Origin: Patescibacteria group bacterium
GTDB taxonomy: Bacteria; Patescibacteriota; Patescibacteriia; UBA10025; JAHIVO01
Assembly: GCA_041650915.1 (NCBI GenBank)
Contig: JBAZKE010000001.1
Location: forward strand, 251,284 to 315,283
Length of the DNA stretch: 64,000 nt
Direction of reading: 5' to 3'
A program made the translations under genes and the position numbers. Within the stretch, counting starts at the first letter, position 1. Each line of letters starts with the position of its first letter. The notes under the pieces are model-generated. The model searched no databases. It had not been told where the DNA came from and saw only the letters and a program-made list of their open reading frames with translations. This document shows, one piece after another, positions 8,253 to 53,359 of the stretch.

Positions 8253-8257
8253 AGTTA

Positions 8258-19186: not shown

Positions 19187-19825
19187 TTACCCTGCAGGTT
19201 TTTCTTTGGAAGAGAAGTGCGTAATAATGCTCAGGAGTGCAAACAGGGCTGCTACCCAGATGAGTATTTCAGCAGTGAGTACGATCGCGCCGTTTTGCTG
19301 CCAGAGGAGCAGGAGTGAAACGGCGACGCCCTCGGTGCCGAATTTCATTTTACCGAATGCATTCGCCCCGATTTTCGGGCGGTGCTTCAGGACATACGCC
19401 ATGAATGGCCCGATGGCGACCGCAAAGAGCACGAGCATGGCCTCGAGAGAAAGTATGGTAGCGATTGCTGCGGTGCTGAGGTTGCCGACGCCGACCATGA
19501 GCAGGACGGTTACAAAAATGATTTTATCCGCGGCAGGGTCGAGCAGCGCACCGAACTTTGTGATTTTATTATGGCATCGGGCTACTGCCCCGTCGAGCGC
19601 ATCGGAACAGAGGAATACAACGAATATGAAGGCTGTCCAGCCGTAATGTTCTTGCTCGTAGAGCAGGTAAATCGGTATAATGAGGAAGATACGAGCAGCA
19701 GTGATGAGGTTGGGGGTAATCCACCGGGGCACGAACCGTGCGATATACAGGAAGGGCACGTCGCGCCATGCGATGATCTTTCCGAGAATTCCCATTTGAA
19801 TTTTTTGGTCATCCATGCCCTTCAC
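19187..19825 (-). CDS. pgsA: CDP-alcohol phosphatidyltransferase (PgsA-like phosphatidylglycerophosphate synthase)
   Basis: Motif DALDGAVARCHNKITKFGALLDPAADK equals D-x2-DG-x2-AR-x8-G-x3-G-x3-D. Multi-TM, ~210 aa. Confidence 0.8.
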   Translation of the reverse strand: MKGMDDQKIQMGILGKIIAWRDVPFLYIARFVPRWITPNLITAARIFLIIPIYLLYEQEHYGWTAFIFVVFLCSDALDGAVARCHNKITKFGALLDPAADKIIFVTVLLMVGVGNLSTAAIATILSLEAMLVLFAVAIGPFMAYVLKHRPKIGANAFGKMKFGTEGVAVSLLLLWQQNGAIVLTAEILIWVAALFALLSIITHFSSKEKPAG

Positions 19826-23827: not shown

Positions 23828-24055
23828 ACACTACCAGTATACCGTTAGTGTCATGCTAGCACAAATTTTTTAGTGAGAAGTTCATTAGCGAGTTTGCAAC
23901 GTATATAATGTGAGTTTTTTAGTGTTCGATATAGTGGAAACGTTAAGAAATTGATTTTTCCCCCAAAGTGTGTTACAATAGTAAGGTATTAAATGTAAAA
24001 AAATAATGATTTTCGGGTTGTAAATACCCATTATTTTTTAGTATACAAGTCATTG

Positions 24056-27000: not shown

Positions 27001-30000
27001 GGTGATGCAAGAAGCGGACGGCCCGTATTTCCTGCGCATCGCGGTCAAGGACGATTCGGGAAATGTTTCAACTCCGGAAACCGCGTTTACCTACAATTAT
27101 ACCGGGGTTAATACCGCGACAGAAGCGGTGTGGGACGATCAGGCGGATTTCGAGGACGGGGAGACTGAAACGAATATCAAAACCGATGCGAACGGGGGAA
27201 CGAATATGACGCTTGATCCGATCAGCCCCGGCACGTGGATGGACTTGCCTGCGTCATTCGGCACTGCCGGCTATAACCATACCTCGTACAACGACACGTC
27301 GATCGCCTGGGACGGCGATGATACGATATATGCATTACGTTCGGTCAATTCGCAATATTTCCATAAATACACCATTTCAACAAAGACATGGGAGCAACTT
27401 GCAAATACCGGCGTGGCGGCGTACACTGGCTCGGCAATCGTGTACGTGCCTGACGGAACCACGGCTAACTGCACTGATGACGGCGGATGCGTCTTTGCCA
27501 CTATGGGCAACGGCACCGGATTCCGCAGATACGATGTCAATGCCAATGCGTGGACGGCGCTCGCTTCCGTGACGCTCTCAGTCGGCAATGGCGGCGGATT
27601 GATCTGGACGGGCGGCGACTACATCTACGCTTCCCGCGGCCAGGGCACCGTCACTATGTACCGCTACGATATTGACAGCAATGAATGGGACGATAACGCG
27701 GCGCCAGACCCTGATTACGCGTTTAATTATGGCGCGGCGTACAGTTATGTGCCAAACGGAAATTACTGCCTTGATTTGCAGGGCTGTATTTTTGCCACGC
27801 GTGGCGGCACTTCAACCCACGTGTACCGTTTTGACATACAGGGAGGTTCTTGGTCATTTCTGACCGCACTGCCGTCAGCATCGCCGCCCAAGGTGAATTA
27901 CGGCGCGACCATGCAGTATCACGATGGGTTCTTGTACTATATTGCCGGGTACTATTCGACTGATTTCCTGAAATACGACATTGCCAGCGATTTTTGGTCT
28001 GCGATGCCTGACCTGCCCACCACCCATTACTACGGATCCACGAATAATCTGGTGTACGATACTAGTTCGGACATCATGTATACGCTGCGCGGTTCGGCTG
28101 AATACAGTTTCCTGAGTTTTGACGTGGCGGAAGACGAGTGGCGCAACCCGGCAATCCCGCACGGCAGTACGACCAATGGTTTTTATTATGGCGGCGTGGC
28201 TTACGACGGGGATGACACGTTATATATTGCGCGCGGAAATGCCGGCAACATGGCTGATTTTTATAAATACACCATATCCACGAAAACCTGGCAGAATCTG
28301 CTGGACGTGCCGATGCGCATGAATACCGGATCCGATTTGATTTACGTTGACGGCAAGGTGTATGCGCTAACTGGCGCGCCGCCGTACGGCGAGGTATATA
28401 GCCGGATGTACGAATACGATCTTGAGACAGGTTTTTGGACTAGGAAAGGCGATCTGCCTGCTGCAGTCGGTGATGGCGCAAAACTGGTTTGGGACGGCAA
28501 TAATACTATTTATACTGCGCGCGGCGGCGCAACGGCAAGCTATACGGTGTATTCATATAAAATATCAGGAGCAGCGGGTGCAGGACAGTGGACGACCCAG
28601 GCAGAAAATGTGTTTGGCAATGCCACCGTATACCAGGGCGCATGTTCGGTATGGGATGGCGGCACCAAGCTCTATTTGATCCAAGGGCAGAATTTATCGA
28701 ATATCCTGTTTTGCAATCTTTCCACGGATGGCGACGGCAATGGCACGTGCGATTGGCAAGCGGATACGCTCACCAACCCCTCCGTCGGGATTCAGTACGG
28801 CAACGCCTGCGCTTTTTATGACGGTACTCCTGATGATTTAATTTTTATACCACGCGGGAATACAAATACCACAGATTTTCTTGTGTATAATGTAACGGAT
28901 GATACATGGGAGACTCGCACGCTGAATAACTTTTATTATGGCGGCCGTCTCGTGACCGGACCGGACGGAATTTTATACGGCTTCCGCGGGTATAACACCT
29001 CAACCATGGACCGGTACGTGCAGCAGACTGCAACGACCAGTTTTCAGCGTACCGGCACCTGGACATCACCAATCGTAACTGCGACGGATATATTTGATTT
29101 TGGAGGGTTCGAGGTAAACGATTCCGAAGAAGAAAACACCTCATTAACGTATGAAACGCGGACGTGTTCTGACGCCGGCTGTGCCGCTGACCAGGGAGAC
29201 GCGCACTGGTCGGACTGGGACGAGGTGTCCAACGCGCGAACGATAGAAACTACGGATTACTATACGGTAGATTCCACGCCGGCAACGTACATCCAGGTCC
29301 GCGCCACCTTCAATTCAGACCGCGTGTACACCCCAACAGTAAACGACTTTACCTTGAGCTACTATATTGACGGCACTGACCCGGACAATCCGGCCGCGCC
29401 GGTTGACGGGTACACATCGAGCGCAAAAACAACGACGATTGATAATAACGACTGGACAAACGATGCGACCCCATACTTTGGATGGACTGCGTCTGATGAT
29501 GCGGGCGGCATTGGCATTGAAGGATTCTATGTGTATTTCGGCACGGACGAGACCAAAGATCCGGTGGATGACGCGGCTGACCCGACCAACCTCGCCTATG
29601 ACAACAGCACGAACTACTATGAGGTTAATGATGATGGCACGACTGGTTCATGGAACGCGGCAACGCAGAGCAGCGATGCGATTACTGACGGCGATTACTA
29701 TTTGCGCATCAGGACCAAGGACTTAAACGGCAATGTAACTGATAGCGCAGTGGCCGCATTTACATTCCTTATTGACGAGAGCGTGCCGAATAATATCACC
29801 GACCTGCAAGTTGGGGATTATATGTCTGCGGAAGATGATTTTGATTTTACTTGGACTGCGGTGAATGATGAAGGCTCGTCAGGCATTGAACAGTACTGCT
29901 ACCATACTGGTTCATCGGCCGATACGTGTGTTGACGAGGGCACGATCTGCAGTGGTGGCACCTGCCTGGTTGAAAACGTCCCGCACTACCAGACGCGCGT

Positions 30001-32974
30001 CAATACGTTTTATGTGCGTGCGGTCGATGAAGCCCTGAATCCGGCCGCGTCATATGCTTCAACGGGGTATTTTTATACCGGCGGCCCGCCGGAACCGCCC
30101 GGAAGCGTGACGGTTGATCCGCTTGCGAGCGTGAATAACAACACGTTCACGATTTCTTGGGATTTGCCAACGACCTGCCTTGGTTCGACGCCATGTTCCG
30201 CGAGCGATATTTACCGCTATTGCTATACTATTAATGAAGAGCCGAGCTCGGAAACATGCGGTGCCAATTATAGCGGCGATGCAACTCCTTCGCCGGATGG
30301 CGGATGGACGACTGAAACTCAGACCTCAAGCCGCCTCCTGCCTGACTTTTCCGCCGCTACCCTGCAGGGCGAAAATATCGTTTATGTAGTGGCAATGGAT
30401 ATTGTGAGCAATATTGATTATTCCAATTATACGACTGCAACGTACGACTTCACTTCCACCGCGCCTGGCATGCCCGCGAGCATGGAGGCGACTGATACGT
30501 CTGACCGCACGACCAATAAGTATTCAGTCGTGCTGACGTGGGATGAGCCGGAAGATGTGGGTAGCGGCGTTGAGTCGTACAAGGTGTACCGCTGCGAAAG
30601 CGATTGCGAGAATCCGTCCACGGTGGATGACCCGCCCTCGAATTATACGAATATCGCCGAGGTGAATACGCTTGGTTATTTGGATACCAGTTTGGACAAT
30701 ACCATTACGTATTCTTACTTCGCGCGGTCGACCGGCACGGGCGGCACGATTTCCGGCAATTCCGCCGTGGCTGAAATAAAACCTGAAGGAAAATTCAAGT
30801 ACGCGCCAACTATCAGCGGCGCACCGGCAGTAACCGCGTACATCCGTTCCGCTTTGGTCGAGTGGCTCACCTTGAATGACCAGGACCAGTACGGCAACGT
30901 TATCGAACACTACGCCTCGTCATACGTGCAGTACGGAACAACGACCGCTTATGGCGAGGAAGACGGTACATCTGACCTGACGGACGAGCATTCGGTCACT
31001 CTGACAAACCTGACGCCGGATACCACGTACCACTATCGGTGCAAGTGGGTTGACCAGGACGGCAATGAAGGCTATTCATCTGATTATACGTTCACGACCA
31101 AGGGAGCGCCGTCAGCGCCGATTAACCTCGCGGTCGATCCGGAATCGAACACTGTGAATAGCTTTGGTTTTTCCTGGGACGCGCCGACTGATGAAGGCGT
31201 GACGGTCGCCGGGTATTACTATTCCATCAATAATATCCCAAACGAAACGAATACTACAAATATCGAGGAAACGAGTATCGAGGCATTCGATGCAGCGACC
31301 CAGCAGGGAACGAACACATTCTACGTTGTCGCGATCGATGACGGCGGCAATATCAACTACGCAAACTACGCATCAGTTGATTTCGAGGCGTATACAGAGC
31401 CGCCCAGCGAGCCCCAAGCCGTTACCATCACTGATTCGTCTGACCGCGATGCAAAGCGGTATTCGATAACTCTGACTTGGGACCCGCCCGAGGGATACAC
31501 AGCGGACGATGAAATATACTATACGATATATCGTCGGGAGGCAGAGGCAGACACTGAAGCTGCTGGCGCCGGCATTGCAAAAGCCGCGGCGGATGACCTG
31601 GAAGAGATTGCGACGATCACCTCGACCGGGTATCTTGATACCGGCCTGGACAGCTCAACGGAATATTTCTACCAGGTGACGGCTCGTGACAAGGCGCAGG
31701 CAACCTCGGATCCGACTGACATTGTTTCCGAAGTGCCGGAAGGGCGCTTTACCCAGCCGCCTGCGATCACCGAGAATCCCGTTGCAGTTTCCGATTCGTT
31801 TGCGGCCACGATTACCTGGCGGACGGAACGTGTCGCATCCTCGTTTGTCGATTTCGGCCTCACCAAGACGGACTGGACCGAGGAGCAGGGGACGGCTGAC
31901 ATGGTTGAGGAGCATTCGGTGCGGATTACCGGCCTGAAACCGGAAACGACCTACTTTTACCAGGTAAAGAGCATTGACGTTGATGAAAACGAGGCATACT
32001 CAAACGTATACTCGTTTGTCACGCTTGAAGCGCCGCGGGTGCTTGAGCTCGACGTGACTGATATCAAGCTGTTTGACGCTATCGTCACATGGGATACCAA
32101 TAAAGAAACGACTGCGGTGATCGAATACGGTACGACCACTGACTACGGGATGACGTATACCGATGTCACTCTTTCGTATGCGCTGACGCACACAGTCAAG
32201 CTTGATCATCTGGATGACAGCCAGACGTACCACCTGCGGATCAACGGCCAGGACCGTTCCGGCAATCCGATACAGTCGGATGACTATTCGTTTACCACTT
32301 TGACATTCCCCGAAGTATCCGATATATCATACGTAAACAAATCGGAGGGCCAGACGGAAATTTTCTGGAAAACGAACGTACCGACCACTTCCGAGGTGGA
32401 GTACTATAGCGACCAGATTGCCCCCAAGACCCAAGGCAATACGGCGCTTGTTACGGAACACGTGATTCTGTTGTACGGGCTGGAAGACGCGACTACGTAC
32501 CAGTTCAAAGTGCGCGGCTCGGATGAGTTCGGCTATGAGGCCGTGTCCGATGAGCGCGAGTTCACGACGCTCGAGGACACCACGCCTCCGGAAATATACG
32601 GCGTGCAGTCCGAGTCAAATACGATCGGTTCAGGCGACGCGTCAAAAATCCAGATTGTCATTTCGTGGAAGACGAATGAGCCGACCACGTCGCAAGCTGA
32701 TTTCGGCGTTGGTTTGGGCGGTTCTGACTATTCGGACCAGACTGAAGAAAACGCTGAGCTGGTAATGGACCATCTGGTGGTTATTTCCGACCTTGCGCCC
32801 GCAAAGACGTACCATTTCCGGGTCGTATCAACTGACAAGGCGGGGAACCAGACGAAATCAGGATCGCATACGGTGTTGACTTCACGGAAGCGCGAGTCAT
32901 TCCTGCAGCTTATCATTTCCAATCTGGAAACGACATTTTCGTGGCTCGGCAATGTCGGTTCCCTGGCAAAGTAG
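24056..32974 (+). CDS. giant (~2970 aa) membrane-anchored surface protein with multiple Kelch-like beta-propeller blades and many FN3-like domains
   Basis: Basic cytoplasmic N-terminus (K/R-rich), one TM (LIIVALVVTATAGLFYFYY), then long arrays of Kelch-like repeats (YGGS...W..Y, FRFDIAEKIWYH, WRYDAANGYWDS, YRYNIGANTWTAL...). Interspersed and C-terminal FN3-like domains (YHYRCKWVDQDGNEGYSSDYTFTT, YFYQVKSIDVDENEAYSNVYSFVT, YHLRINGQDRSGNPIQSDDYSFTT, YHFRVVSTDKAGNQTKS). Start set at the first ATG after the TTG given in the track. Confidence 0.75.
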   Translation: MQADQMPARQKKKKITGNIPVRQNRKKTIATQKKRSACRVSAVSSRSGAAKQNQKNRTRTAVGFYGRFFAFLNLVTGFIRAYRPLIIVALVVTATAGLFYFYYQSTLAAAAQYVIDTQAEWEAGEYYPNTVDTKTTADEISIKPGGGGTWDGDTTGFLTDTAGYEYWSYDGPSYGADLTTDGTYIYQILGNRRPYLFRYNPETNTWKQLANAPTSFYYGGSITYDAHTKSIFAINGGEQNETEQATKHMFQYDIASDTWSKSTDAPDTFGLGSSITSNGAGKLFAVRGRNTDELWEYDIDDETWDQNYSQLPTPYYVYQTNGQPLEFVNEQYSDGEGDHCTQGCLFTLYGGGNRNFFRFDIAEKIWYHTTPVDLTIPAALGGVNYGSSFAYDSDRGNLFLLHGNTQYPATTTMGDNFSTYDVSAQDWDDAPEDTPDAPGWVTYGGAMVYLDDYVYAMQGYNGSRPGLWRYDAANGYWDSISTPDVANGSNPALGQGTQGSGGENGHLVYVPSGTYCADAGGCLYSFRGGNSTNYWRYNVDAKTWTTDLSVENFGALQQGSSFCYNGANRIYALHGESTLTFYQYEITGEGDDDEDTWQVLTSMPADHSDADDYPDASANASYGSSLACMGTTVYALKGGTSASGANHFFSYNGAAWTDLEPLPQRAYLGAKLVTVPYDAGHTEWCADASGCVFAFAGNMRGDWYRYNIGANTWTALTGDNLPTATYYTASLAYDGQGNIYATDGNYDTNMWKYEINGDDGTWYQIADLQARVGYNNALAYDSDNNVMYFQQGLGTTTISRFTPTPDDYIASATWISEPLDLGYVNSFSTLGYLVTEPDDSAVTFQTRTSTDKVSWSDWENLGLLDAIESDAGQYIQVKAVLAASTDGGDTPTITSITVNYDKDGTAPDNPDVDGYADSTEATEITSGAGNLYHYTNPYFEWDAATDDSGIAGYYVRWTDDELDDPDESEDYFQTGTSYEVNTVMQEADGPYFLRIAVKDDSGNVSTPETAFTYNYTGVNTATEAVWDDQADFEDGETETNIKTDANGGTNMTLDPISPGTWMDLPASFGTAGYNHTSYNDTSIAWDGDDTIYALRSVNSQYFHKYTISTKTWEQLANTGVAAYTGSAIVYVPDGTTANCTDDGGCVFATMGNGTGFRRYDVNANAWTALASVTLSVGNGGGLIWTGGDYIYASRGQGTVTMYRYDIDSNEWDDNAAPDPDYAFNYGAAYSYVPNGNYCLDLQGCIFATRGGTSTHVYRFDIQGGSWSFLTALPSASPPKVNYGATMQYHDGFLYYIAGYYSTDFLKYDIASDFWSAMPDLPTTHYYGSTNNLVYDTSSDIMYTLRGSAEYSFLSFDVAEDEWRNPAIPHGSTTNGFYYGGVAYDGDDTLYIARGNAGNMADFYKYTISTKTWQNLLDVPMRMNTGSDLIYVDGKVYALTGAPPYGEVYSRMYEYDLETGFWTRKGDLPAAVGDGAKLVWDGNNTIYTARGGATASYTVYSYKISGAAGAGQWTTQAENVFGNATVYQGACSVWDGGTKLYLIQGQNLSNILFCNLSTDGDGNGTCDWQADTLTNPSVGIQYGNACAFYDGTPDDLIFIPRGNTNTTDFLVYNVTDDTWETRTLNNFYYGGRLVTGPDGILYGFRGYNTSTMDRYVQQTATTSFQRTGTWTSPIVTATDIFDFGGFEVNDSEEENTSLTYETRTCSDAGCAADQGDAHWSDWDEVSNARTIETTDYYTVDSTPATYIQVRATFNSDRVYTPTVNDFTLSYYIDGTDPDNPAAPVDGYTSSAKTTTIDNNDWTNDATPYFGWTASDDAGGIGIEGFYVYFGTDETKDPVDDAADPTNLAYDNSTNYYEVNDDGTTGSWNAATQSSDAITDGDYYLRIRTKDLNGNVTDSAVAAFTFLIDESVPNNITDLQVGDYMSAEDDFDFTWTAVNDEGSSGIEQYCYHTGSSADTCVDEGTICSGGTCLVENVPHYQTRVNTFYVRAVDEALNPAASYASTGYFYTGGPPEPPGSVTVDPLASVNNNTFTISWDLPTTCLGSTPCSASDIYRYCYTINEEPSSETCGANYSGDATPSPDGGWTTETQTSSRLLPDFSAATLQGENIVYVVAMDIVSNIDYSNYTTATYDFTSTAPGMPASMEATDTSDRTTNKYSVVLTWDEPEDVGSGVESYKVYRCESDCENPSTVDDPPSNYTNIAEVNTLGYLDTSLDNTITYSYFARSTGTGGTISGNSAVAEIKPEGKFKYAPTISGAPAVTAYIRSALVEWLTLNDQDQYGNVIEHYASSYVQYGTTTAYGEEDGTSDLTDEHSVTLTNLTPDTTYHYRCKWVDQDGNEGYSSDYTFTTKGAPSAPINLAVDPESNTVNSFGFSWDAPTDEGVTVAGYYYSINNIPNETNTTNIEETSIEAFDAATQQGTNTFYVVAIDDGGNINYANYASVDFEAYTEPPSEPQAVTITDSSDRDAKRYSITLTWDPPEGYTADDEIYYTIYRREAEADTEAAGAGIAKAAADDLEEIATITSTGYLDTGLDSSTEYFYQVTARDKAQATSDPTDIVSEVPEGRFTQPPAITENPVAVSDSFAATITWRTERVASSFVDFGLTKTDWTEEQGTADMVEEHSVRITGLKPETTYFYQVKSIDVDENEAYSNVYSFVTLEAPRVLELDVTDIKLFDAIVTWDTNKETTAVIEYGTTTDYGMTYTDVTLSYALTHTVKLDHLDDSQTYHLRINGQDRSGNPIQSDDYSFTTLTFPEVSDISYVNKSEGQTEIFWKTNVPTTSEVEYYSDQIAPKTQGNTALVTEHVILLYGLEDATTYQFKVRGSDEFGYEAVSDEREFTTLEDTTPPEIYGVQSESNTIGSGDASKIQIVISWKTNEPTTSQADFGVGLGGSDYSDQTEENAELVMDHLVVISDLAPAKTYHFRVVSTDKAGNQTKSGSHTVLTSRKRESFLQLIISNLETTFSWLGNVGSLAK

Positions 32975-38132: not shown

Positions 38133-38528
38133 ATGTCTGACAATGTTTTAATCGCAACGCTCAAATATATTGCCATAGAGATCCTGTGGGATATTGTGTA
38201 CTTTCCGATCTGGTGGTATTCGAAAGGCCTCGTACGGATCGGGCGGTACTGTCTCGAGAGCGCTGAGTTCCACGTCTCGAGGCGCCTTGCGCTCGGAGTG
38301 TGGCTGAGGAGCATGTTCAAGCCGATGTACGGCGATTATACGAAAGAGGGCAGAATCATCAGCTTTTTCATGCGTGTCGTCGTACTCGTCTGGAAGCTCA
38401 TTGCGACGGTACTGTGGATGTGCGTGCTCGCACTCATCTTTTTTTGCTGGATTTTATTGCCATTCATCATCGTGTACTACATACTGTACCAGGTGTTTGG
38501 TGTGCCTTTTATTCCCTTCAGCAGGTAG
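38133..38528 (+). CDS. small multi-TM membrane protein, unknown function
   Basis: Hydrophobic, W/Y/F-rich (IEILWDIVYFPIWWYSKGL...LIFFCWILLPFIIVYYILYQVF). No family recognised. Confidence 0.4.
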   Translation: MSDNVLIATLKYIAIEILWDIVYFPIWWYSKGLVRIGRYCLESAEFHVSRRLALGVWLRSMFKPMYGDYTKEGRIISFFMRVVVLVWKLIATVLWMCVLALIFFCWILLPFIIVYYILYQVFGVPFIPFSR

Positions 38529-38533
38529 GTTGT

Positions 38534-41299
38534 ATGGAGACAGAAACAGGAAAATCTTTTGTACTGCTCACCTGCCCCTTGTGCGGCGGTACGAGCGTAA
38601 CGAACGAGGGCACGTGCAGCCGCTGCCGGGAGCAGGGTGTTTTTGCGTGGCATGAGGGAGATATCCTGCACTGGAGCAAGAAGATAGATACACTTCACAT
38701 TTTTGAGGAGGAGATTGAACGTGCGGTGAAGGCGCTCGTAAACGGCTTCCTCGTCTTCGTCGGTGTCGTCGGACTCATCGCCCTCTTCATTATGATGATC
38801 CGCACCGCAGGCTGGACTGACCACTTCTGGGAGGTATTCAGGGAACGCAACAGTCTCATGGCGATTTTTTCTATAACGCTCATTGCCGATTTGTACGCGT
38901 ACTACCGGATCCAGCGGGAATCGCTCATGGAGCGTACGGTAAAGGTAAAGCGGTTTGATCCGCTCCTTACGGAGGAGGAGCCGCCCGCGCTTTTTGACCA
39001 GGTCAGCTCGAATCCGGGCAAGGGGATGATCGACGTATCAGTGACCTTCACTGAGGACGCGACGCAGTCTGTTGAACGCGCATGGCAGCTCGCCCAGAAG
39101 TTAAAGCATGCAGAAGCTACGCCGCTCCACAGCTTTGCGACCGTCCTTTCGTACCCGCAGGCGAGGATTATCCTCGCGCGGCTTGGCGTCGATGGAAAGG
39201 CGCTCGTCGAGAAGATATCGCGGAGCCTCTATAAGCTGCCGAAGAAAGACCGCGGAGACACGCGGCTCTCCGGGAGCTTCCGGTCCATGTTGCTGTCCGC
39301 GTACGTCGAGGCGTACGAGGCGCGGCAGGAGAGGGTTGAGGCGCAGCACATGCTCGTCGCCGCGGTAAAGACCGACCCGACGGTGCGCGATATCCTGTAC
39401 GACATGGAGATTGAGCTTGATGAGGTCATCAACGTTGTCGAGTGGATCAATATTCAGCACCGGATCGCGGAACAGCGCCGCCGATGGCGGAGCAAGGCCG
39501 CCTACAAGTCGAAGGGCGTGATGAACAAGTCGATGACCTCCCAGGCAACGCCGCTGCTCGACAGGTTCAGCCATGATTTGACCTCGCTCGCCCGGCAAGG
39601 GGTGCTCGCGCCGTGCATCGGCAGGGACAGCGAGCTCGAACAGACGCTCCGGATCATCGAAGGCGGCAAGAACATCATACTCACCGGCCATCCCGGGGTC
39701 GGCAAGACGAGTGTCGTTGAGGGAATCGCGGCGCTTATGGCATCCGAGGAAGTCCCGGCTGTGATGCAGGATATGAGGTTTGTGAGCCTGTCGGTAGCGT
39801 CGCTCGTCGGTTCCGCGGGGCGCCAGGGCGAGCTCGAGGGAGTGCTGCTCCAGCTGATCAACGAAATCGTCCGGTCAGGTAATATTGTACTCTTCATCGA
39901 CAACATACAGAATATGGTCGGCGTCTCTACGCAGGGCGCAGAGAACCTCGACATTTCGGATATACTTGCAAACGCGCTGTCAAAGCGGCTTTTCTACTGC
40001 ATTGCAACGACGACGCCGCTCGATTTCCGCAGGTATATCGAGCCATCAAGTTCGCTGACTTCGGTTTTCCAGCGGGTCAATGTCAGCGAGCCGGACCGCA
40101 ACGGAACGATCAGAATCCTCGAGGGGAAGGCAAACTCGGTCGAGGCGAAGAACCAGGTATTCTTTTCGTATGATTCCATCGAACGCGCCGTCATCCTGAG
40201 CGAGCGGTACATCCACGAACGCTTCCAGCCGGAGAAGGCGATCTCGATTCTCGACGAGGTCGGCGTTTACGTGCGCCGCAAGAAGGGCGCCAACTCAATC
40301 GTGACCGGAGAGGATGTCGCGGAAATCGTTTCGCATAAGACGAACGTGCCGGTGACAAAAATTACCGAGAAGGAAACAGAGAAGCTGCTTCAGCTCGAGG
40401 AGCGGATCCACCAGCGCATGGTTAACCAGGACGAAGCGGTCAAGGCCGTGTCGACCGCACTCCGGCGTGCGCGTGCGGAGCTGCGCGATATCGGGCGTCC
40501 GATCGTCAACCTGCTTTTCCTCGGGCCGACCGGCGTCGGCAAAACGGAGCTCGCCAAGACCGTCGCTGAGACGTACTTCGGATCGGAGGATACCATGGTC
40601 AGGCTCGATATGTCCGAGTACCAGGAAAAGTCCTCAATCAGCCGCATGATCGGCTCGCCGCAGGGAGTCGGGGGCAGCGGGGAAGGCGGGTACCTCACAG
40701 AGGCGATCCGCACGCAGCCGTTCTCGCTGCTGCTGCTCGATGAAATGGAGAAAGCTCATCCGGATATCCTCAACCTCTTCCTGCAGGTGATGGACGATGG
40801 CCGCCTGACGGATACGCTCGGCCGTACGATTGACTTCACGAACGTGATTTTGATCGCGACGTCGAACGCCGGTACGCCGATTATCCAAAAGCGGATCAGG
40901 GAGAATGTCCCAATCGAAAAAATAAAAGACGAGCTCATCAACGAAGAGCTCAAGCAGTACTACCGTCCCGAGTTCCTCAACCGTTTCGACAACATCGTCG
41001 TGTTCACGCCGCTCTCATTCGAGCATATCCTGAAGATCGTTGATCTTATGCTCGGTAATGTGCGGAAGCGGCTCGCCGTGAAGGGCATCCAGCTCGAGGC
41101 GACGAAGGAAGCGAAAGAAGAGCTCGCACGGGAAGGGTATGACCCGGTGTTTGGCGCACGGCCATTGCGCCGCGCGATCCAGGAGCGGGTTGATAACGCC
41201 CTCGCGAATTACCTGCTGCAGGGCAAGATCGGCAGGCGTGACGTCGCCGTGCTCGAAAAAGGCGGCAATATTTCAGTCCGTTCGGCGCCGCCGATTTAG
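38534..41299 (+). CDS. Clp/Hsp100-family double-AAA+ ATPase (ClpA/ClpC-like, no long M-domain) with an N-terminal C4 zinc ribbon and two TM helices
   Basis: N-terminus CPLCGG...CSRCREQG, then TMs LVNGFLVFVGVVGLIALFIMMI and LMAIFSITLIADLYAYY, then a Clp_N-like repeat region. NBD1 Walker A GHPGVGKTSVVEGIA, NBD2 Walker A LFLGPTGVGKTELAKT, Walker B LLLLDEMEKAHPDILNLFLQVMDDGRLTD. The start is the ATG at 38534; the track start at 38300 is an extension. Confidence 0.85.
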   Translation: METETGKSFVLLTCPLCGGTSVTNEGTCSRCREQGVFAWHEGDILHWSKKIDTLHIFEEEIERAVKALVNGFLVFVGVVGLIALFIMMIRTAGWTDHFWEVFRERNSLMAIFSITLIADLYAYYRIQRESLMERTVKVKRFDPLLTEEEPPALFDQVSSNPGKGMIDVSVTFTEDATQSVERAWQLAQKLKHAEATPLHSFATVLSYPQARIILARLGVDGKALVEKISRSLYKLPKKDRGDTRLSGSFRSMLLSAYVEAYEARQERVEAQHMLVAAVKTDPTVRDILYDMEIELDEVINVVEWINIQHRIAEQRRRWRSKAAYKSKGVMNKSMTSQATPLLDRFSHDLTSLARQGVLAPCIGRDSELEQTLRIIEGGKNIILTGHPGVGKTSVVEGIAALMASEEVPAVMQDMRFVSLSVASLVGSAGRQGELEGVLLQLINEIVRSGNIVLFIDNIQNMVGVSTQGAENLDISDILANALSKRLFYCIATTTPLDFRRYIEPSSSLTSVFQRVNVSEPDRNGTIRILEGKANSVEAKNQVFFSYDSIERAVILSERYIHERFQPEKAISILDEVGVYVRRKKGANSIVTGEDVAEIVSHKTNVPVTKITEKETEKLLQLEERIHQRMVNQDEAVKAVSTALRRARAELRDIGRPIVNLLFLGPTGVGKTELAKTVAETYFGSEDTMVRLDMSEYQEKSSISRMIGSPQGVGGSGEGGYLTEAIRTQPFSLLLLDEMEKAHPDILNLFLQVMDDGRLTDTLGRTIDFTNVILIATSNAGTPIIQKRIRENVPIEKIKDELINEELKQYYRPEFLNRFDNIVVFTPLSFEHILKIVDLMLGNVRKRLAVKGIQLEATKEAKEELAREGYDPVFGARPLRRAIQERVDNALANYLLQGKIGRRDVAVLEKGGNISVRSAPPI

Positions 41300-41353: not shown

Positions 41354-41746
41354 CTATGCTCCGGTCGCGGACCGCAGGGTGCCGGTGAGGGTTGAGAGGA
41401 TTGCGAATGCTGCGAGCGCGATTACGGTGCCGAGGGCTGAGTACTTGAGTATCTGTTTTGCTTTGGTCACGCGCTCTTCGTTGCCGGCAGCCGTCATCCA
41501 CATGAAGCCCCCGTAGATGACCATCACCACGCCTGCGAGCCCGAGGAAGCCGAGCAGGATTTGCCCGGCCCGGATCACCATGTGCGGCGGCTCCTGGTCA
41601 GGGAGCTTGGTCGCGTCTTTGATTTTATTTCCCGGATCAAATTCAACGCCGAGCGCCGTTTTTACCCTGCCAATGAGAAGGTATGCGCTAAAAGCAGTTG
41701 AGCCAAGCCAGCCGATTGTTTTCCAGGAAATTTTTTTCATACGCAT
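41354..41746 (-). CDS. TrbC/VirB2-like (conjugative or type IV secretion) pilin-family small membrane protein
   Basis: Signal/TM, then GFLGLAGVVMVIYGGFMWMTAAGNEERVTKAKQIL, which matches the VirB2/TrbC pilin core (hydrophobic helix - YxGfxymtsgGnxEkvxkAKxxi), then a second TM. 130 aa. Confidence 0.55.
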   Translation of the reverse strand: MRMKKISWKTIGWLGSTAFSAYLLIGRVKTALGVEFDPGNKIKDATKLPDQEPPHMVIRAGQILLGFLGLAGVVMVIYGGFMWMTAAGNEERVTKAKQILKYSALGTVIALAAFAILSTLTGTLRSATGA

Positions 41747-41756
41747 ATCCTACGTA

Positions 41757-41787
41757 CAGTATATGAGATGCGAGGCGTTTGTGTCAA
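41757..41787 (-). promoter_or_regulatory. strong sigma70-like promoter for the pilin-like gene (TTGACA - 18 nt - TATACT), ~17 nt from the ATG
   Basis: Minus-strand reading gcTTGACAcaaacgcctcgcatctcaTATACTgtacgtaggatatgcgtATG. Confidence 0.5.
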
Positions 41788-41794
41788 AGCTGGG

Positions 41795-41822
41795 TTTGAC
41801 AGGCATTTTGCACCGTGATACA
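41795..41822 (+). promoter_or_regulatory. divergent sigma70-like promoter (TTGACA - 16 nt - TACAGT) for the small CDS at 41916
   Basis: ggTTGACAggcattttgcaccgtgaTACAGT. The downstream gene has a good SD (aggagtttgtaATG). Confidence 0.45.
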
Positions 41823-41915
41823 GTTGTTGGCCAACTGTTCATTACATTGGAGTACCGTCTGCCCGTAATAGGATTACAAACTACCATCTAATCATTTTTT
41901 GGAAAGGAGTTTGTA

Positions 41916-42098
41916 ATGTCTGACAAGCTGTACAAAATGTACGGAAAGGACAATCCCGACGGCATACGGATCAGCGAGCCGCTTGAAAAGAGCGGATTGC
42001 ATCCGATCCAGTGGCTGATGATTGTCATCATCGCCTGCCTGGCCGTCGCGATCATATTTGGAGCTGTAGATTCAGTGCGTGCCATTCCGTTGCCGTAA
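41916..42098 (+). CDS. 60-aa single-TM protein, unknown function
   Basis: Canonical SD AGGAG 7 nt upstream. One TM (IQWLMIVIIACLAVAIIFGAV). Confidence 0.45.
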   Translation: MSDKLYKMYGKDNPDGIRISEPLEKSGLHPIQWLMIVIIACLAVAIIFGAVDSVRAIPLP

Positions 42099-42206
42099 CG
42101 GTTGGGCATGTTGAACCTATAGAGTAGCTGGCGTTCCGCGTCAAGAACGCCAGCACTTTTTTTATTTGCCGAAAAAGTCCGAAATCGCTATACTTAATTT
42201 CATCAT

Positions 42207-43547
42207 ATGGACCAGAATGACAAAATGGAAAAGATCATATCGCTGTGCAAGAGGCGCGGTTTTATTTTCCAGTCAGGCGAGCAGTACGGCGGGCTCCAGG
42301 GTTTTTGGGATTTCGGCCCGCTCGGGGTTGAGCTGAAGAACAACATCAAAAAAGCCTGGTGGAAGCGGTTTGTGCAGCAGCGCAGGGATGTTGTCGGATT
42401 AGATTCGGCCATTATTACCAATCCTACTGTTTGGGAGAAGAGCGGGCACGTCGGCGGTTTTTCGGATACGTTGGTCGAGTGCAAGCAGTGCCATCATCGT
42501 TTTAAGCTGGATGATTTGGCAGGAAGCCAAGAACAGGAAACCACAAATCAGAAATGCCCGGATTGCGGTGGCCAGCTGACGCAGGAACGGAAGTTCAATA
42601 CGATGTTCAAGACATTTGTCGGGCCGGTTGAGGATTCGTCGGCTGTTGCGTATTTGCGTCCGGAAACAGCACAGAATATATTCGTTGATTTTGATACGAT
42701 CCGCCAGGCAATGCGCCTGAAGCTTCCATTTGGCATCGCACAAATCGGCAAGGCGTTTCGCAATGAAATCACGCCCGGCAATTTCATTTTCCGCTCACGT
42801 GAGTTTGAACAGATGGAGATCGAGTATTTCATTGATCCTAAAGAGGATGCGAAGTATTTCAAAAAATGGGTTGATGCAAGCTTTCAGTGGTTTCTCGATC
42901 TGGGCATGAAAAAGGAGAACCTCCGTTTGTTTGAGCAGCCGAAAGGGGAGTTAGCTCATTATTCAAAAGCAACTACGGACATTGAATACAATTTTCCTTT
43001 TGATAAGGGATTTGCGGAGCTCATGGGCATAGCGAACCGTACGGATTATGATTTAAAAGCACATAGCTTTACGTATACAGATGATGTGGAGAAAAAGGAG
43101 TTTGTTCCGTACGTTATTGAGCCGTCGGCAGGCGTTGACCGCGCGGCACTCGCATTTTTATTGGATGCATACGAAGAAGTGAAGGGCGGACGGACGACCA
43201 CGACGGAAAGCAATAAGGAAGCAGAGGTTGTGTTGCGTTTGCACAAAGACCTTGCGCCGTACAAGGCGGCGGTGCTGCCATTATCCAAGAAAGAACAGCT
43301 TGCGAAACCCGCGCAGGATATTTACCATGACCTGCAAAAACATTTCATGGTGGCGTATGACGATGTCGCGTCCATCGGCCGGCGGTACCGGAGGCAGGAC
43401 GAGATCGGCACGCCATACTGCATTACCGTTGATTTCGACAGCTTGGAAGACAAAAAAGTTACGGTTCGCGATCGCGATACCATGAAACAGGACCGGGTGC
43501 AGATCGGGGAGTTGGTAAATTATTTGAGAGATAAGTTACATTCATAA
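42207..43547 (+). CDS. glyQS: glycyl-tRNA synthetase (alpha2 homodimeric type)
   Basis: N-terminus [39 protein letters not shown] matches GlyRS ([33 protein letters not shown]). 446 aa. Confidence 0.9.
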   Translation: [446 protein letters not shown]

Positions 43548-43559
43548 TTTTTTACACTT

Positions 43560-44528
43560 ATGCGCGAAGGATATCGACCGCAATCGGAGGGGATAGGACA
43601 AACTGAAGAAAAAAAACAGGACAAACACCAAAAAAGCAGAGGCATCATTGACCGCATAAAATATGCCCTGAAAGTCGGGGCGATTGTCGGCGGGACCATG
43701 CTTGGTACTGGTGCCATGCGCGGCGGGGAAGCGGTAGCCGCCCCGGAAAAGGATAAAATTACGGATAAAGAACATAAATGGACCGAAGCTCAGGAAAGGC
43801 TGATCAATCAGATGTGGCATCGAACCAATGAGAAGGTAATGGAGCTGGATTCAATTTATTACCAGAAAAACAAGGATACTCTGCCGACAGACGTAGTTGA
43901 TTTTTTCCAGAAAGAGGGTAGTGATTTTGCCGTGGCTGTTGTCGAGGGCAATGGCACGATGGAGGATTTCGAAAGGGACCTGCAGGCATTGTACGATATA
44001 TTCCGTAAGAACCTGATCGGAGGCGATTCGACCGCAGCCGAAACGGTCCCGCCAACGCCAGCACAAACCCAGGAAGCTGATGCTTCGGCACAACAACAGG
44101 AAAGTGAGTTTGATGCTTTCGTGAATAAGGAGGAAGCTGAATTTGCTCAGAGTACAGAGGAAGCGCAGCAAACAATGGGTGAAACAATAGAAAAATCTGA
44201 AGCTGCTTTTATGGAATTAGAAAATGACCCTGCTTTTGCAGAATCAGATTCAACAGGCGTACTGGCGGAAAAGTACAATTCTACAGAGAATGCGGGACAA
44301 CGGGACACGATGAGGCAAGAAATACTGAAAACGTATTTGGGTTTTGAGATTCAGAAAGGCCATACTTTCAGCGAAGGGAAGTGGTCCGGAACCATTAAAA
44401 GAATTCCTGGTTTCATCATGGAACTTAAATTTACTGTCGATAAAGATGGAAATGTTGAAGGCAGTATTACGGATATGTTTTCTGGCGAAATGTCAGGCTA
44501 TCAAATAAATATATCTGAGTTGAAGTAG
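43560..44528 (+). CDS. acidic secreted hypothetical protein, cargo of the cassette inserted at the glyQS 3' end
   Basis: N-terminal hydrophobic segment (VGAIVGGTMLGTGAM), E/Q/A-rich low-complexity middle. No recognisable domain. Confidence 0.5.
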   Translation: MREGYRPQSEGIGQTEEKKQDKHQKSRGIIDRIKYALKVGAIVGGTMLGTGAMRGGEAVAAPEKDKITDKEHKWTEAQERLINQMWHRTNEKVMELDSIYYQKNKDTLPTDVVDFFQKEGSDFAVAVVEGNGTMEDFERDLQALYDIFRKNLIGGDSTAAETVPPTPAQTQEADASAQQQESEFDAFVNKEEAEFAQSTEEAQQTMGETIEKSEAAFMELENDPAFAESDSTGVLAEKYNSTENAGQRDTMRQEILKTYLGFEIQKGHTFSEGKWSGTIKRIPGFIMELKFTVDKDGNVEGSITDMFSGEMSGYQINISELK

Positions 44529-44567
44529 TTATAGGATGATTTACATGTACCTTTTTTATACATAATT

Positions 44568-44637
44568 GCGATACCGTGAAACAGGACCGGGTGGAGATCG
44601 GGGAGTTGGTAAATTATTTAATGGATAAGTTGAATTA
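44568..44637 (+). pseudogene. relic copy 1 of the glyQS 3' end (last 23 codons, ~88% nt identity, frame and stop preserved)
   Basis: gcgataccGtgaaacaggaccgggtgGagatcggggagttggtaaattatttAaTGgataagttGaAttag versus genuine gcgataccAtgaaacaggaccgggtgCagatcggggagttggtaaattatttGaGAgataagttAcAttcataa. Homology starts abruptly at gcgatacc. Confidence 0.7.
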
Positions 44638-44801
44638 GATTGTTTGTCACCTTTCTTGGCGGCGAGAAAAGCGGCGGAAAAGCATGCCTTGAGCGCAGCC
44701 GAAGGGAACCACCGCGCTGGTTCCGTAATCTTGAAAATTGGGCTCATCGTCCCTGCCGACCCACAACCGCTTCGCTTGAGTGGGATCGGCTTCCTCACTT
44801 C

Positions 44802-44888
44802 GTTCGCGACCGTGACACGATGGAGCAGGAGCGAGTGGCGGTTGACGAGTTAGAAGATCATTTGAAAGAGAAGCTGGGTAATGAGTAA
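44802..44888 (+). pseudogene. relic copy 2 of the glyQS 3' end (last ~28 codons, more diverged, in frame with its own stop)
   Basis: Encodes RDRDTMEQERVAVDELEDHLKEKLGNE* versus genuine [26 protein letters not shown]. Embedded in the otherwise spurious track ORF 44640..44888. Confidence 0.6.
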
Positions 44889-44950
44889 TCAAGCTGAGCA
44901 GTCGTGGCCGCTCGCCTCAACGGCGGGAGATTCTTCGCCTACGGCTCAGA

Positions 44951-46234
44951 ATGACAATAACGTACTATATGTTCAAACAATATAGGCTGAAAAATGACTT
45001 GCGGGTTTTACTCGCACCCCTCAAGGAGACGAAAGCCGTAACCGTGCTCGTCCTCGTCAAGGTCGGCTCGCGGTACGAGCCGAAGCAGATCAACGGCGCC
45101 TCGCACTTCGTGGAGCATCTCATGTTTAAGGGGACCGAGAAGCGCCCGACATCGCTCGACATTACCAAAAAGCTCGACGGCATCGGAGCGTCATACAATG
45201 CGTTTACCTCAAAAGACCACACGGGGTACTACGTTAAGTGCAGCAGGGACAAAATTGAGCTCGCGCTCGACGTGCTGTCCGACATCGTCTTCAACTCAAA
45301 ATTCGATACGGATGAGATTGAGCGGGAGCGCGGCGTCATCGTGGAGGAAATCAACATGTACGAAGATGCGCCCATGATGATGATTGATGACGTTTTTGAA
45401 GGGGCAGTCTTCGGCAGGGTGCCGCTTGGGCGTTCTATCGCGGGGCCTAAGGAGGTTATCAAGCGTATTACGAGAAAGCAGCTCTACGGCTACTACCGCG
45501 AGCACTACCAGCCGCGCAATATGCTCATTGCTGTCGCGGGCAACTATGACTATTCTGTCCGGCGGCTGATACGCGCCTATTTCGGCGGATCGCGTGTGCG
45601 CCAGCGGAAAGCGTCGTTTCGCAAGGTGGCGATTACCCAGCGGCAGCCGCGGGTTTCACTCAAGCGCAAGGAGACGGAGCAAGCCCACCTCGCCCTCGGT
45701 TTTCCCGCGTATTCGTACACGCAGCGGCAGCTCTATGCGCTCTACGCCCTCGCTGTCGTGCTCGGCGGTAACATGAGCTCGCGGCTCTTCATGTCGATCC
45801 GCGAACGGAAAGGCCTGTGTTATTATATCCGGACAGACGTCGGCATCTACGAGGATACGGGTACGTTCGCAGTATTCGCTGGGTTGGATAAGAGCCGCAT
45901 CAGGGAGGCTATCAGGGAGATTGTCAAAGAGCTCAAGAATATCCGGGATGGCGGAATCACGGCACAGGAGCTCAAGAAGGCGAAAGACTTCCTCAGAGGC
46001 AAGCTCATACTGGATCTCGAAGCGTCAGACAGCGTCGCATCGTGGCTCGGAAAGCAGGCGCTGCTCAAGGGAACGGTGCTGACTGCCGCCGAACAGCTTC
46101 GGCGGGTACGCGCCGTGACGATGGCCGACGTCCGGCGTGCTGCCCGGGAGGTCATCCAGGAGCGTAGGTGCAGCCTATCCCTCATCGGCCCGTTCAAGAA
46201 CGAACGTACGTTCCGCCCACTTTTAAAGATGTAG
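44951..46234 (+). CDS. M16-family zinc metallopeptidase (insulinase/pitrilysin-like)
   Basis: HFVEHLMFKGT inverted zincin HxxEH motif and the downstream E (...YNAFTSKDHTGYY). ~427 aa, typical M16B. Confidence 0.85.
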   Translation: MTITYYMFKQYRLKNDLRVLLAPLKETKAVTVLVLVKVGSRYEPKQINGASHFVEHLMFKGTEKRPTSLDITKKLDGIGASYNAFTSKDHTGYYVKCSRDKIELALDVLSDIVFNSKFDTDEIERERGVIVEEINMYEDAPMMMIDDVFEGAVFGRVPLGRSIAGPKEVIKRITRKQLYGYYREHYQPRNMLIAVAGNYDYSVRRLIRAYFGGSRVRQRKASFRKVAITQRQPRVSLKRKETEQAHLALGFPAYSYTQRQLYALYALAVVLGGNMSSRLFMSIRERKGLCYYIRTDVGIYEDTGTFAVFAGLDKSRIREAIREIVKELKNIRDGGITAQELKKAKDFLRGKLILDLEASDSVASWLGKQALLKGTVLTAAEQLRRVRAVTMADVRRAAREVIQERRCSLSLIGPFKNERTFRPLLKM

Positions 46235-51825: not shown

Positions 51826-52203
51826 GTGGATGCACAGGTAGCTGTTTTCAAGGATATTCTGTGCGAAGAGGCGAGACTGCTCATTTCGCAGTGCTCTGGG
51901 AAGATAACTGACCGCATTACGTGGGGCAGGCTCCTGCAGCACTGCCGCACGTGCCACGTGTGCGCAGAGCTCTTCCTGGGACATCACAAGGGACAGATCG
52001 CGATCATCGCAGCGCAGGTAATCAACCGCGAGGTCATACCCGGGCACCGGTACTATGCCCTCGCCAACGTTGAGATGCACTTCCCGAAGCTGCTGGTCGA
52101 AGCACTCCAGGGCGGGGATCTGACCGATGACGAAAAAGCGCTCATCGCAGAGCACGTCGGTTCTTGCCACGAGTGCAAGCAGCACGTGCCCAGCGCGCAA
52201 TAA
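51826..52203 (+). CDS. small cytoplasmic protein with two zf-HC2-like H-x3-C-x2-C motifs (anti-sigma-factor-type zinc finger?)
   Basis: LQHCRTCHVC and HVGSCHECKQH. Confidence 0.4.
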   Translation: MDAQVAVFKDILCEEARLLISQCSGKITDRITWGRLLQHCRTCHVCAELFLGHHKGQIAIIAAQVINREVIPGHRYYALANVEMHFPKLLVEALQGGDLTDDEKALIAEHVGSCHECKQHVPSAQ

Positions 52204-52291
52204 GGCGATTCAAGCCACTAAGCCCACAGGCGACCGTACCTGTGGGCGTTGTATTTTACGGACGCTCGTTCCGCGTGATATACTACCGTAT

Positions 52292-53359
52292 ATGGATACA
52301 TCGGCAATTATCATCAGCGCTGTCGTCATCGTAGGTTTTATCATTACCTACGTTCTCGTGTTCCGAAAAAAAGGGGAGAGCGGCGCGAACCCCGAGCTGA
52401 AAGAGCAGCTCGTGCGGCTCGAGGAGCGGATTGCGCAGCTCAATGAGAAGAGCAGTGAACTTACGCGTACTGTTGATTCCAAGCTCGCCGACTCCACCAA
52501 GGCGATCCAGCAGCAGTTCGGGGAATCGACAAAGATCGTGCGGAACGTAACAGAGCGCTTAACGAAGTTAGACGAAACCAACAAGCAGGTGCTGAATTTT
52601 TCGGACCAGCTCAAGAATTTGCAGGACATCCTCAAGAACCCGAAGCAGCGGGGCGTGCTCGGCGAATACTACCTCGAGGAGACACTCAAGAACGTGCTGC
52701 CTCCAAACTCGTACAAGATGCAGTACAAGTTTAAGGACGGCGAGATCGTCGATGCGGTTGTCTTTGTGAAAGATAAGATTATACCGGTCGATTCGAAGTT
52801 TTCATTGGAAAACTATGAGCGCATTTTAAATGAACGGGATGAGAAAGAACGGCAGGCGCTTGAGGCACAGTTTAAAATGGACCTGAAGAACAGGATTGAT
52901 GAGACGTCGAAATACGTGCGGCCGTCTGAAAATACGATGGATTTCGCGTTCATGTTCATTCCGTCTGAGGCGATCTACTATGACCTCTTGGTGAACAAAG
53001 TCGGCGCTGTGAAGGTGAATACGCGCGACCTTATCGAGTACGCCTTCAAGGACAAGCACGTGATCATCGTTTCCCCGACCAGTTTTCTCGCATACCTGCA
53101 GACGGTGCTCCAGGGCTTGCGCGCGCTTCAGATCGAGGAGTCTGCAAAGGAGATCCGGAAGAACGTCGAGGCGCTCGGCAAACACATCATGAGCTTCGAG
53201 TCGTCGATGGCAAAGCTCGGCAACCACCTCGGCACGACAGTCAACACCTACAACTCGGCATCGAAAGAGTTTAAGAAGATAGATAAAGACGTTTTAAAGA
53301 TTGCTGATGTTGGGGGAAACGTCGAGCCGATTGAACTTGACCGGCCGCAACAAGACTAG
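52292..53359 (+). CDS. rmuC: DNA recombination protein RmuC
   Basis: N-terminal TM, long coiled coil, C-terminal RmuC nuclease-like domain (DAVVFVKDKIIPVDSKFSLENY ... FMFIPSEAIYYDLL). Start set at MDTSAIIISAVVIV. Confidence 0.8.
   Translation: MDTSAIIISAVVIVGFIITYVLVFRKKGESGANPELKEQLVRLEERIAQLNEKSSELTRTVDSKLADSTKAIQQQFGESTKIVRNVTERLTKLDETNKQVLNFSDQLKNLQDILKNPKQRGVLGEYYLEETLKNVLPPNSYKMQYKFKDGEIVDAVVFVKDKIIPVDSKFSLENYERILNERDEKERQALEAQFKMDLKNRIDETSKYVRPSENTMDFAFMFIPSEAIYYDLLVNKVGAVKVNTRDLIEYAFKDKHVIIVSPTSFLAYLQTVLQGLRALQIEESAKEIRKNVEALGKHIMSFESSMAKLGNHLGTTVNTYNSASKEFKKIDKDVLKIADVGGNVEPIELDRPQQD

Follow-up and report, generated by a model that had tools for sequence, protein, structure and literature searches.

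Homology-facilitated illegitimate recombination (HFIR), in which homology anchors one end of the incoming DNA and an illegitimate joint attaches the other, has been documented in naturally transformable bacteria and in Escherichia coli conjugation, and single crossovers of circularised molecules have been seen to duplicate 109–950 bp of the homologous segment (PMC3240628). The same logic has been proposed for the serially displaced 3′ gene ends found in type VI secretion system (T6SS) and Rhs loci (Kirchberger et al. 2017, PMC5361080). Natural competence and the recombination of homologous DNA are known in cultivated Patescibacteria, as shown for cultivated Saccharibacteria only (PMC10633639). 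Here we describe a 64-kb stretch of DNA (contig JBAZKE010000001.1; hereafter the window) from a Patescibacteria (Candidate Phyla Radiation, CPR) genome of ∼680 kb, in which glyQS, the gene for the glycyl-tRNA synthetase (GlyRS), is followed by two relics of its own 3′ end. Our results suggest that this locus is probably the scar of serial HFIR-like recombination, anchored by homology and closed by an illegitimate joint at the far end, with the chromosomal DNA of related Patescibacteria, and not the product of site-specific integration.

The functional glyQS lies on the plus strand at 42207–43547, and a repeat search of the window shows that its last ∼72 nt form a family of three direct copies in register, all on the plus strand: the reference at 43471–43542, copy 1 at 44565–44636 (89% nucleotide identity to the reference) and copy 2 at 44809–44880 (65%). 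We refer to the successive pieces as e0 (the current functional glyQS 3′ end, 43471–43547), O (ORF322), x (39 nt), e1, s (the spacer) and e2. Relic e1 (44568–44637), from a previous glyQS 3′ end, retains 22 sense codons in frame and a TAG (23 codons including the stop), and relic e2 (44802–44888), from the native 3′ end, retains 28 codons in frame and a TAA. The motif of the gene end reads GAAACAGGACCGGGTG[C/G]AGATCGGGGAGTTGGT, and the 42-nt motif core occurs exactly twice in the window against none expected (100 shuffles). Separated by 1094 nt, e0 and e1 are 89% identical over 72 nt (89–91% overall) and are closest to each other, with derived bases in common that are absent from the related loci L086, L083 and L082. 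In copy 1 the homology sets in sharply, at ..AT-GCGATACC. At the DNA level copy 2 is weak, but its protein match is clear (60% identity over 25 aa to the genuine end, tblastn E = 3e-6); aligned with the genuine glyQS end its peptide gives VRDRDTMEQERVAVDELEDHLKEKL, and the full peptide of e2, recognisable mainly at the protein level, is VRDRDTMEQERVAVDELEDHLKEKLGNE followed by the stop. A sequence-only reading of this DNA had described two in-frame relic copies with stops of their own, the abrupt onset of homology in copy 1 and a single acidic 322-aa gene between the genuine end and copy 1. All three descriptions hold, and the three copies align significantly, by the count of the core and by tblastn.

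The closest relative found, a contig of 5.9 kb (L170) identified by protein search with the M16 peptidase (80%-identical homolog), presents the locus as an empty site, with the gene order ClpC, pilin on the minus strand, glyQS (480 aa), 83 nt, M16, AI-2E and rsmI. Between the window and L170 the flanking proteins are 89% (ClpC C-terminus), 88% (AI-2E), 84% (pilin, 75% at the nucleotide level), 83% (RsmI) and 80% (M16) identical. The segment 44802–45099 of the window, comprising e2, the intergenic region and the start of M16, is colinear with L170 2694–2991 (76% over 299 nt, E = 5e-56), and the e2 peptide matches the C-terminus of the L170 GlyRS at 21 of 27 residues. This colinearity of e2, the downstream intergenic DNA and M16 with the end of the L170 glyQS establishes e2, as judged from the alignments, as the surviving stump of the native gene's 3′ end. 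The native intergenic DNA and the gene for the M16 (pitrilysin-family) peptidase form the right flank on the plus strand (44889–46234), with the M16 start probably at 44969. On the left, the rearranged region is bounded by a native gene for a type IV secretion system (T4SS)-type pilin on the minus strand (41354–41746), homologs of which carry PF18895.

The glyQS gene itself has a different ancestry from these flanks. The window GlyRS is only 67% identical to that of L170, below the 80–89% of the flanking proteins, and reaches 81–82% identity with L086, L082 and L093, and 81–84% when P0126–P0136 are added to these; in a search of 5.8 billion proteins the L170 GlyRS ranks ∼75th among the matches of the window GlyRS. 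The GlyRS proteins of L170 and a further relative, L171, are 84% identical to each other and share an insertion of 35–40 aa that the window GlyRS lacks. Since the identity to L170 is far below that of the flanks and higher to other lineages, most of the gene is xenologous, and the comparison demonstrates that the present glyQS is, by its sequence affinities, largely a xenolog, foreign from about codon 44 onward.

The transition can be placed within the gene by the informative sites, defined as those at which L170 differs from the majority of L086, L082 and L093. L170-type and foreign-type states stand at 18:3 up to position 42333 and at 80:191 thereafter (Fisher p = 5e-7), and sliding identities agree with a breakpoint near 42335, which corresponds to about codon 43 and falls where glyQS is most conserved. 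The 5′ segment (42207–42335, plus strand, about codons 1–43) is of the L170/L171/L090 type, with 83–88% nucleotide identity to L170 in sliding windows, and is probably both the surviving native part of the gene and the homologous anchor. The remainder of the functional gene, e0 included (42336–43547, plus strand), is a xenologous ‘short-type’ allele, foreign-type at 191 of the 271 informative sites.

An exact-sequence look-up of the window GlyRS returned no record, and in a search for a close donor the nearest GlyRS was 84% identical, the contexts of the three top matches containing neither ORF322 nor relics. Base composition was considered as evidence of import and set aside: GC3 is low in glyQS and ORF322 compared with the flanks, but the same genes are GC3-poor in the relatives, and the sister L170 is AT-rich overall, so that composition alone is not decisive. 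The insertion of 35–40 aa lies in a Zn-ribbon-like CxxC...CxxC region (window codons 95–135, 42490–42610) and is present in L170, L171 and L083 and absent from the window, L086, L082 and L093; this insertion/deletion polymorphism of GlyRS cuts across the genome phylogeny.

The spacer s (44638–44801, plus strand, 164 nt) consists of intergenic DNA found downstream of glyQS in L083-type genomes. The segment 44559–44806, which contains e1 and s, is colinear with L083 7663–7886 (E = 1e-45), that is, with the 3′ end of the L083 glyQS and the first ∼145 nt of the intergenic region; e1 continues straight into s in the same arrangement as in L083, and the spacer is identical at 115 of 133 positions outside one 24-nt indel. 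The spacer was brought in together with e1, and the alignment shows e1 and s to be, on their affinities, of donor type and derived from a relative's chromosome. An L083-type organism (L085) occurs in the same sample as the window genome. Compared with L083 7743–7886 the spacer (44638–44801) is 86.5% identical, exceeding the glyQS coding DNA of the same genomes (72–77%), and this high conservation could reflect a very recent exchange or a functional element that we do not recognise. Directly after the stop codon the spacer opens with the inverted repeat TTTCTTGGCGGCGAGAAA. The spacer was also considered as a structured RNA and rejected, as it has no Rfam match, folds no better than shuffled sequences on either strand and shows no covariation with L083.

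The sole open reading frame (ORF) between e0 and copy 1 is ORF322 (43560–44528, plus strand), which starts 12 nt after the glyQS stop and encodes an acidic protein of 322 aa (pI 4.66) that is probably membrane-anchored and has a weakly hydrophobic Gly/Ala-rich segment at residues 35–53. ORF322 has no Pfam match, and its homologs form only three other clusters among the 5.8 billion proteins, all located downstream of glyQS in sister lineages. The gene order there is ORF131, ClpC, pilin on the minus strand, (ORF399/414), CDP-alcohol transferase, glyQS, (ORF109 or a 259-nt intergenic region), the ORF322 homolog, HD, GNAT, M16, AI-2E and rsmI, and no glyQS-end repeats are found around the ORF322 homologs in these three lineages. 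Judged by this context, ORF322 is an ordinary chromosomal neighbour of glyQS and no cassette. Between the window and L086, ORF322 is 83% identical at the nucleotide level (0.74 at third codon positions), as against 58–70% (0.33–0.43) for the flanking genes compared with L086, L082 and L083, and ∼60% (0.46–0.47) for the L086 ORF322 compared with its homologs in L082 and L083. Being discordantly close to L086 relative to the flanking genes, ORF322 was exchanged with an L086-like lineage long after the genomes had diverged.

Further observations concern the ORF322 family, whose members are found at 43560–44528 in the window, 8001–8969 in L086, 8001–8924 in L082 and 8001–8927 in L083. The N-terminal ∼160 aa are conserved, with a basic start, the Gly/Ala-rich hydrophobic segment and a helical domain, and the C-terminal half appears swappable between two unrelated types, one in the window and L086 and the other in L082 and L083. 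Within codons 241–300 (window 44280–44460; L086 8721–8900) a tract of ∼180 nt is 94–97.5% identical, compared with ∼80–85% for the rest of the gene, suggestive of a short and very recent recombination tract between the lineages of the window and L086. At the same position L090 carries an ORF of 288 aa that is similar in build and unalignable with ORF322. A structure model of ORF322 from the four-sequence alignment (mean pLDDT 47.6, pTM 0.31) was of too low a quality for a fold search. Between the ORF322 stop and e1 lies the AT-rich segment x (44529–44567, plus strand, 39 nt), the right edge of which is an illegitimate junction. It has no significant similarity to any fetched locus; x was also aligned as a decayed start of the HD gene, which follows ORF322 in relatives, and the scores equalled those of shuffled sequences.

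The structure of the joints is informative on how these pieces came together. At the s/e2 joint (44801/44802) L083-type intergenic DNA is followed by the L170-type gene end, with a 13-nt overlap (44789–44801) partly matching both, and at the x/e1 joint (44567/44568) no donor partner is identifiable. The two junctions fall at different codons of the gene end, −22 for x/e1 and −28 for s/e2. One homologous end, one microhomology joint, a relative's chromosome as donor and the lack of a recombinase or viral link together constitute the signature of HFIR. Two displacement events may account for the array. The native state would have been that of L170, with the pilin gene on the minus strand, a long glyQS of the 480-aa type, ∼83 nt and M16. 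In Event A, donor DNA with a short-type glyQS and its own downstream DNA would have entered, with a homologous crossover on the left, near 42335 in the conserved 5′ portion of the gene, and an illegitimate joint on the right, at a 13-nt imperfect microhomology within the resident gene's final 28 codons; the outcome would be a stranded e2 and the replacement of ∼1.2 kb of glyQS. In Event B, a segment of glyQS end, ORF322 and 39 nt, drawn from the ordinary glyQS–ORF322 neighbourhood of a sister lineage, would have been added through homology in glyQS or e on the left and an illegitimate joint at codon −22 on the right, stranding e1; alternatively, a single crossover of a circularised fragment would yield the same structure. 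Event B may have followed Event A within the window lineage, or it may have preceded the transfer, in the donor, and both the order of events and the genome in which the e0/e1 duplication arose are our inference. At each event the cell would have survived through the intact end that the incoming DNA brought for the essential gene, and the old ends would remain as untranslated relics. RecA-type strand exchange and a microhomology joint, probably after DNA uptake, which may run through transformation or a conjugation-like T4SS, are the likely mechanism; the recombination genes visible in the window are those for RecO (16360–17115) and RmuC (52127–53359).

Conservation of the junction in which this took place was surveyed in 64 non-redundant Patescibacteria loci holding both glyQS and M16. 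M16 follows glyQS within 150 nt in 36 of the 64, and in the other 28 the two genes are separated by 151–4528 nt of lineage-specific DNA. The glyQS–M16 junction is thus conserved yet often remodelled. No relic glyQS ends were found in ∼145 other glyQS loci (139 + 6).

Several points weigh against serial HFIR-like recombination. The foreign tract has at least three ancestries (the glyQS body, the L086-like ORF322 and the L083-like e1 and s), which exceeds the minimal two events, and the spacer is more conserved with respect to L083 (86.5%) than coding DNA. As the nearest GlyRS is 84% identical, no donor is closely sampled and the events are unassignable to specific donors. The ‘native’ states of the 5′ segment also occur in L090 and L171, and the left crossover may lie anywhere from 41747 to ∼42340. 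Finally, both illegitimate joints fall within ∼15 nt in a gene of 1.3–1.4 kb, which is improbable under uniform placement; on this closeness alone (codons −22 and −28) a site-specific model gives the more natural account. It may be that the joints form beside the end of the paired homologous region, and the short conserved region upstream of M16 would leave little room for a viable joint further downstream. We regard as possible and rather unlikely a mixed history in which copy 2 arose by recombinational replacement and e0 and e1 are what is left of a stretch of glyQS end, spacer and ORF322 that was duplicated in tandem in situ, in the donor or the window lineage by unequal or illegitimate sister-chromosome exchange and followed by deletion of the first spacer and the second ORF322. 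Consistent with this, e0 and e1 are sister sequences with common derived bases, and e1 is contiguous with the spacer as in L083-type genomes, where ORF322 lies downstream of the spacer, so that the order e–O–x–e–s fits a duplication joint between x and codon −22. However, a duplication and at least two precise deletions are then needed, no second ORF322 fragment is left, and the model by itself gives no reason why ORF322 should be L086-like (83%, locally 97%) but the spacer L083-like. An assembly chimera of co-occurring related strains, fused through the conserved glyQS-end sequence, is scarcely credible. The L083-type organism in the same sample and a repeat conserved enough to mislead an assembler would allow for it, but an independent Logan assembly (L001), built from run SRR8542065, matches the window exactly over 11,786 nt, across all three copies and every junction, and the repeats are therefore no assembly artefact. 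Moreover, e1 and s are just ∼75–86% identical to the co-occurring L085 sequence and so are not that strain's DNA, and e2 is colinear with the native downstream region.

Integrative elements are known to insert at the 3′ ends of housekeeping genes, and the sequence-only reading had proposed serial site-specific integration into an otherwise untouched glyQS, in which a tyrosine or serine recombinase that has since been lost or is encoded elsewhere inserts small circular cassettes into an attB site in the glyQS 3′ end and a mimic of that end on the cassette (attP) rebuilds the gene. The direct repeats that flank the ORF322 segment, the location of both junctions in the same ∼15-nt part of a highly conserved block and the lineage-specific inserts at the glyQS–M16 junction in 28 of 64 lineages are all compatible with such a model, which we nevertheless consider highly improbable. 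The event that produced copy 2 replaced ∼1.2 kb of the glyQS body (breakpoint near 42335), which is impossible by integration at the 3′ end and contradicts the model for that copy. The junctions lie at different nucleotides, e0 and e1 are closest to each other with neither resembling an element, and the supposed cassettes are the ordinary surroundings of glyQS in relatives (the L083 intergenic region; ORF322 followed by HD and GNAT, with no repeats). Thus the segment between copy 1 and copy 2, previously given as gene-less and ∼165 nt long, indeed holds no gene and measures 164 nt, but is ordinary L083-type intergenic DNA and not a cassette. No relic ends occur in the ∼145 other loci, and neither ORF322 nor the repeat core matches viral contigs. 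Pfam scans of ∼40 window ORFs, inserts included, found no integrase, resolvase or transposase domains, in agreement with the earlier statement that the window lacks an integrase, and no pair of attC-type inverted repeats is present at or near 44529–44640 or 44638–44801; the suggestion of an integron-like arrangement is therefore not supported, there being neither a recombinase in the window nor attC-type palindromes. What did survive of that proposal is that the copies are displaced, non-functional old gene ends with the rightmost the oldest, in keeping with the native origin of e2. The comparison across relatives supplied an empty site in L170 but no cassette-like boundaries and no second example of the three-copy array. 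A related and quite improbable reading makes the junction of the glyQS 3′ end and M16 a dedicated diversification slot, where the conserved coding block acts as a recombination signal and a trans-encoded recombinase or a competence-coupled mechanism swaps small surface-protein genes (ORF322-like, ORF109, ORF288, ORF128) among co-occurring lineages; the two relics, with junctions ∼15 nt apart, would then be its footprints.

Serial recombination with relatives' DNA places the locus closest to HFIR (‘homologous recombination at the border’). As in HFIR, one end appears anchored by homology, here in the 5′ part or the end of glyQS, the other joins without extended homology at the s/e2 and x/e1 joints (no partner being identified on the donor side of x/e1), and foreign DNA is trapped beside the anchor, with partial duplication of the homologous segment as seen experimentally (PMC3240628). 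Unlike in the experimental systems, the process is deduced here from a natural footprint in an uncultivated genome, in which two joints are nested at the same essential gene end. The string of displaced 3′ ends (e1, e2) downstream of an intact gene, each pushed back by an incoming module with no integrase involved, also resembles the rhs, cdiA and T6SS arrays, for which Jackson and colleagues reportedly described C-terminal displacement and orphan 3′ arrays at the effector loci in 2009. Those arrays, however, consist of variable toxin domains with immunity genes that are kept by selection, whereas the gene concerned here is a housekeeping aminoacyl-tRNA synthetase and the relics are near-equivalent, functionless pieces of 22–28 codons. 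No toxin or immunity domains were detected in the array, and the relics correspond to the conserved end of the anticodon-binding domain of GlyRS.

The discordance between GlyRS and its flanks is in turn reminiscent of xenologous displacement of aminoacyl-tRNA synthetases, in which an essential gene is replaced in situ by the allele of another lineage, but the replacement here is partial, leaving a mosaic gene, and the donor is fairly close, from the same Patescibacteria group. To our knowledge, a surviving stump of the old gene such as the one observed here is rarely documented in such displacements. With the islands that occupy the 3′ ends of tRNA, tmRNA and protein genes the locus shares direct repeats that bracket the insert and an insert that supplies the new gene end. 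It differs from them in having no integrase and no element-specific genes, in the replacement of the gene body, in inserts (0.23 and 1.09 kb) made of relatives' chromosomal DNA, and in a target that is not native upstream of the crossover (GlyRS 67% against 80–89% for the flanks, insertion absent). Like integron arrays, the locus is serially arranged, its newest insertion lying closest to the fixed end; it is set apart from them by repeats that are duplicates of coding sequence and by the lack of IntI, attI and attC-type imperfect palindromes in the window.

The left edge of the region also departs from the L170 arrangement. The pilin–glyQS intergenic region (41747–42206, plus strand) measures 460 nt compared with 112 nt in L170, and contains an orphan ORF for a membrane-like protein of 60 aa (41916–42098), a strong terminator hairpin 3′ of that ORF (42127–42154) and a conserved glyQS promoter (42166–42194), the block of which aligns across relatives. 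No homologs of the 60-aa ORF, the hairpin or the 41747–42206 DNA were found in any fetched locus, and the remodelled region may have received another insertion here, at its left edge. On the right, ∼46–58 nt upstream of M16 (AACGGCGGGAGATTCTTCGCCTACGGCTCAGAATGACAATAACG; window 44905–44962, L170 2795–2852) are near-identical in the two genomes, compared with only ∼76% identity in the adjoining coding DNA, and this stretch may serve M16 as a conserved promoter or leader. In the L082/L083/L086 clade glyQS is surrounded by genes that the window lineage and L170 lack, namely those for the CDP-alcohol phosphatidyltransferase (407 aa), ORF399/414, ORF109, the HD-domain protein and GNAT; a search of the window for HD, GNAT, ORF109 and the CDP-alcohol transferase returned only a distant CDP-OH paralogue (19187–19825).

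Elsewhere in the window, two giant surface proteins are predicted, one of 2973 aa (24053–32974) with Kelch, fibronectin-III and purple-acid-phosphatase-N domains and one of 1119 aa (385–3744) with NHL and FG-GAP repeats. A cluster on the minus strand (7694–10068) comprises tRNA-Asp (7694–7769), infC/IF3 (8552–9151), tmRNA (9128–9537) and smpB (9619–10068); no island or repeats were noticed at the 3′ end of the tmRNA (9128–9537), for which no dedicated search was made. The mechanically called ClpC ORF (38300–41299, GTG at 38300) overlaps an upstream ORF of 131 aa (38133–38528), and since ClpC homologs have 920 aa the true ClpC start is near 38537.

The locus is a new example of known processes and reveals no new mobile-element or integron-like system. 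Its value would lie in being a clean natural case in which an essential housekeeping gene has been partly overwritten in place by a relative's DNA with both breakpoints still visible, the homologous one within the gene and the illegitimate one where the old 3′ end was stranded. In this phylum recombination and gene exchange have been inferred mostly from phylogenies. The locus also points to the conserved glyQS–M16 junction as a frequently remodelled slot for lineage-specific small surface proteins.

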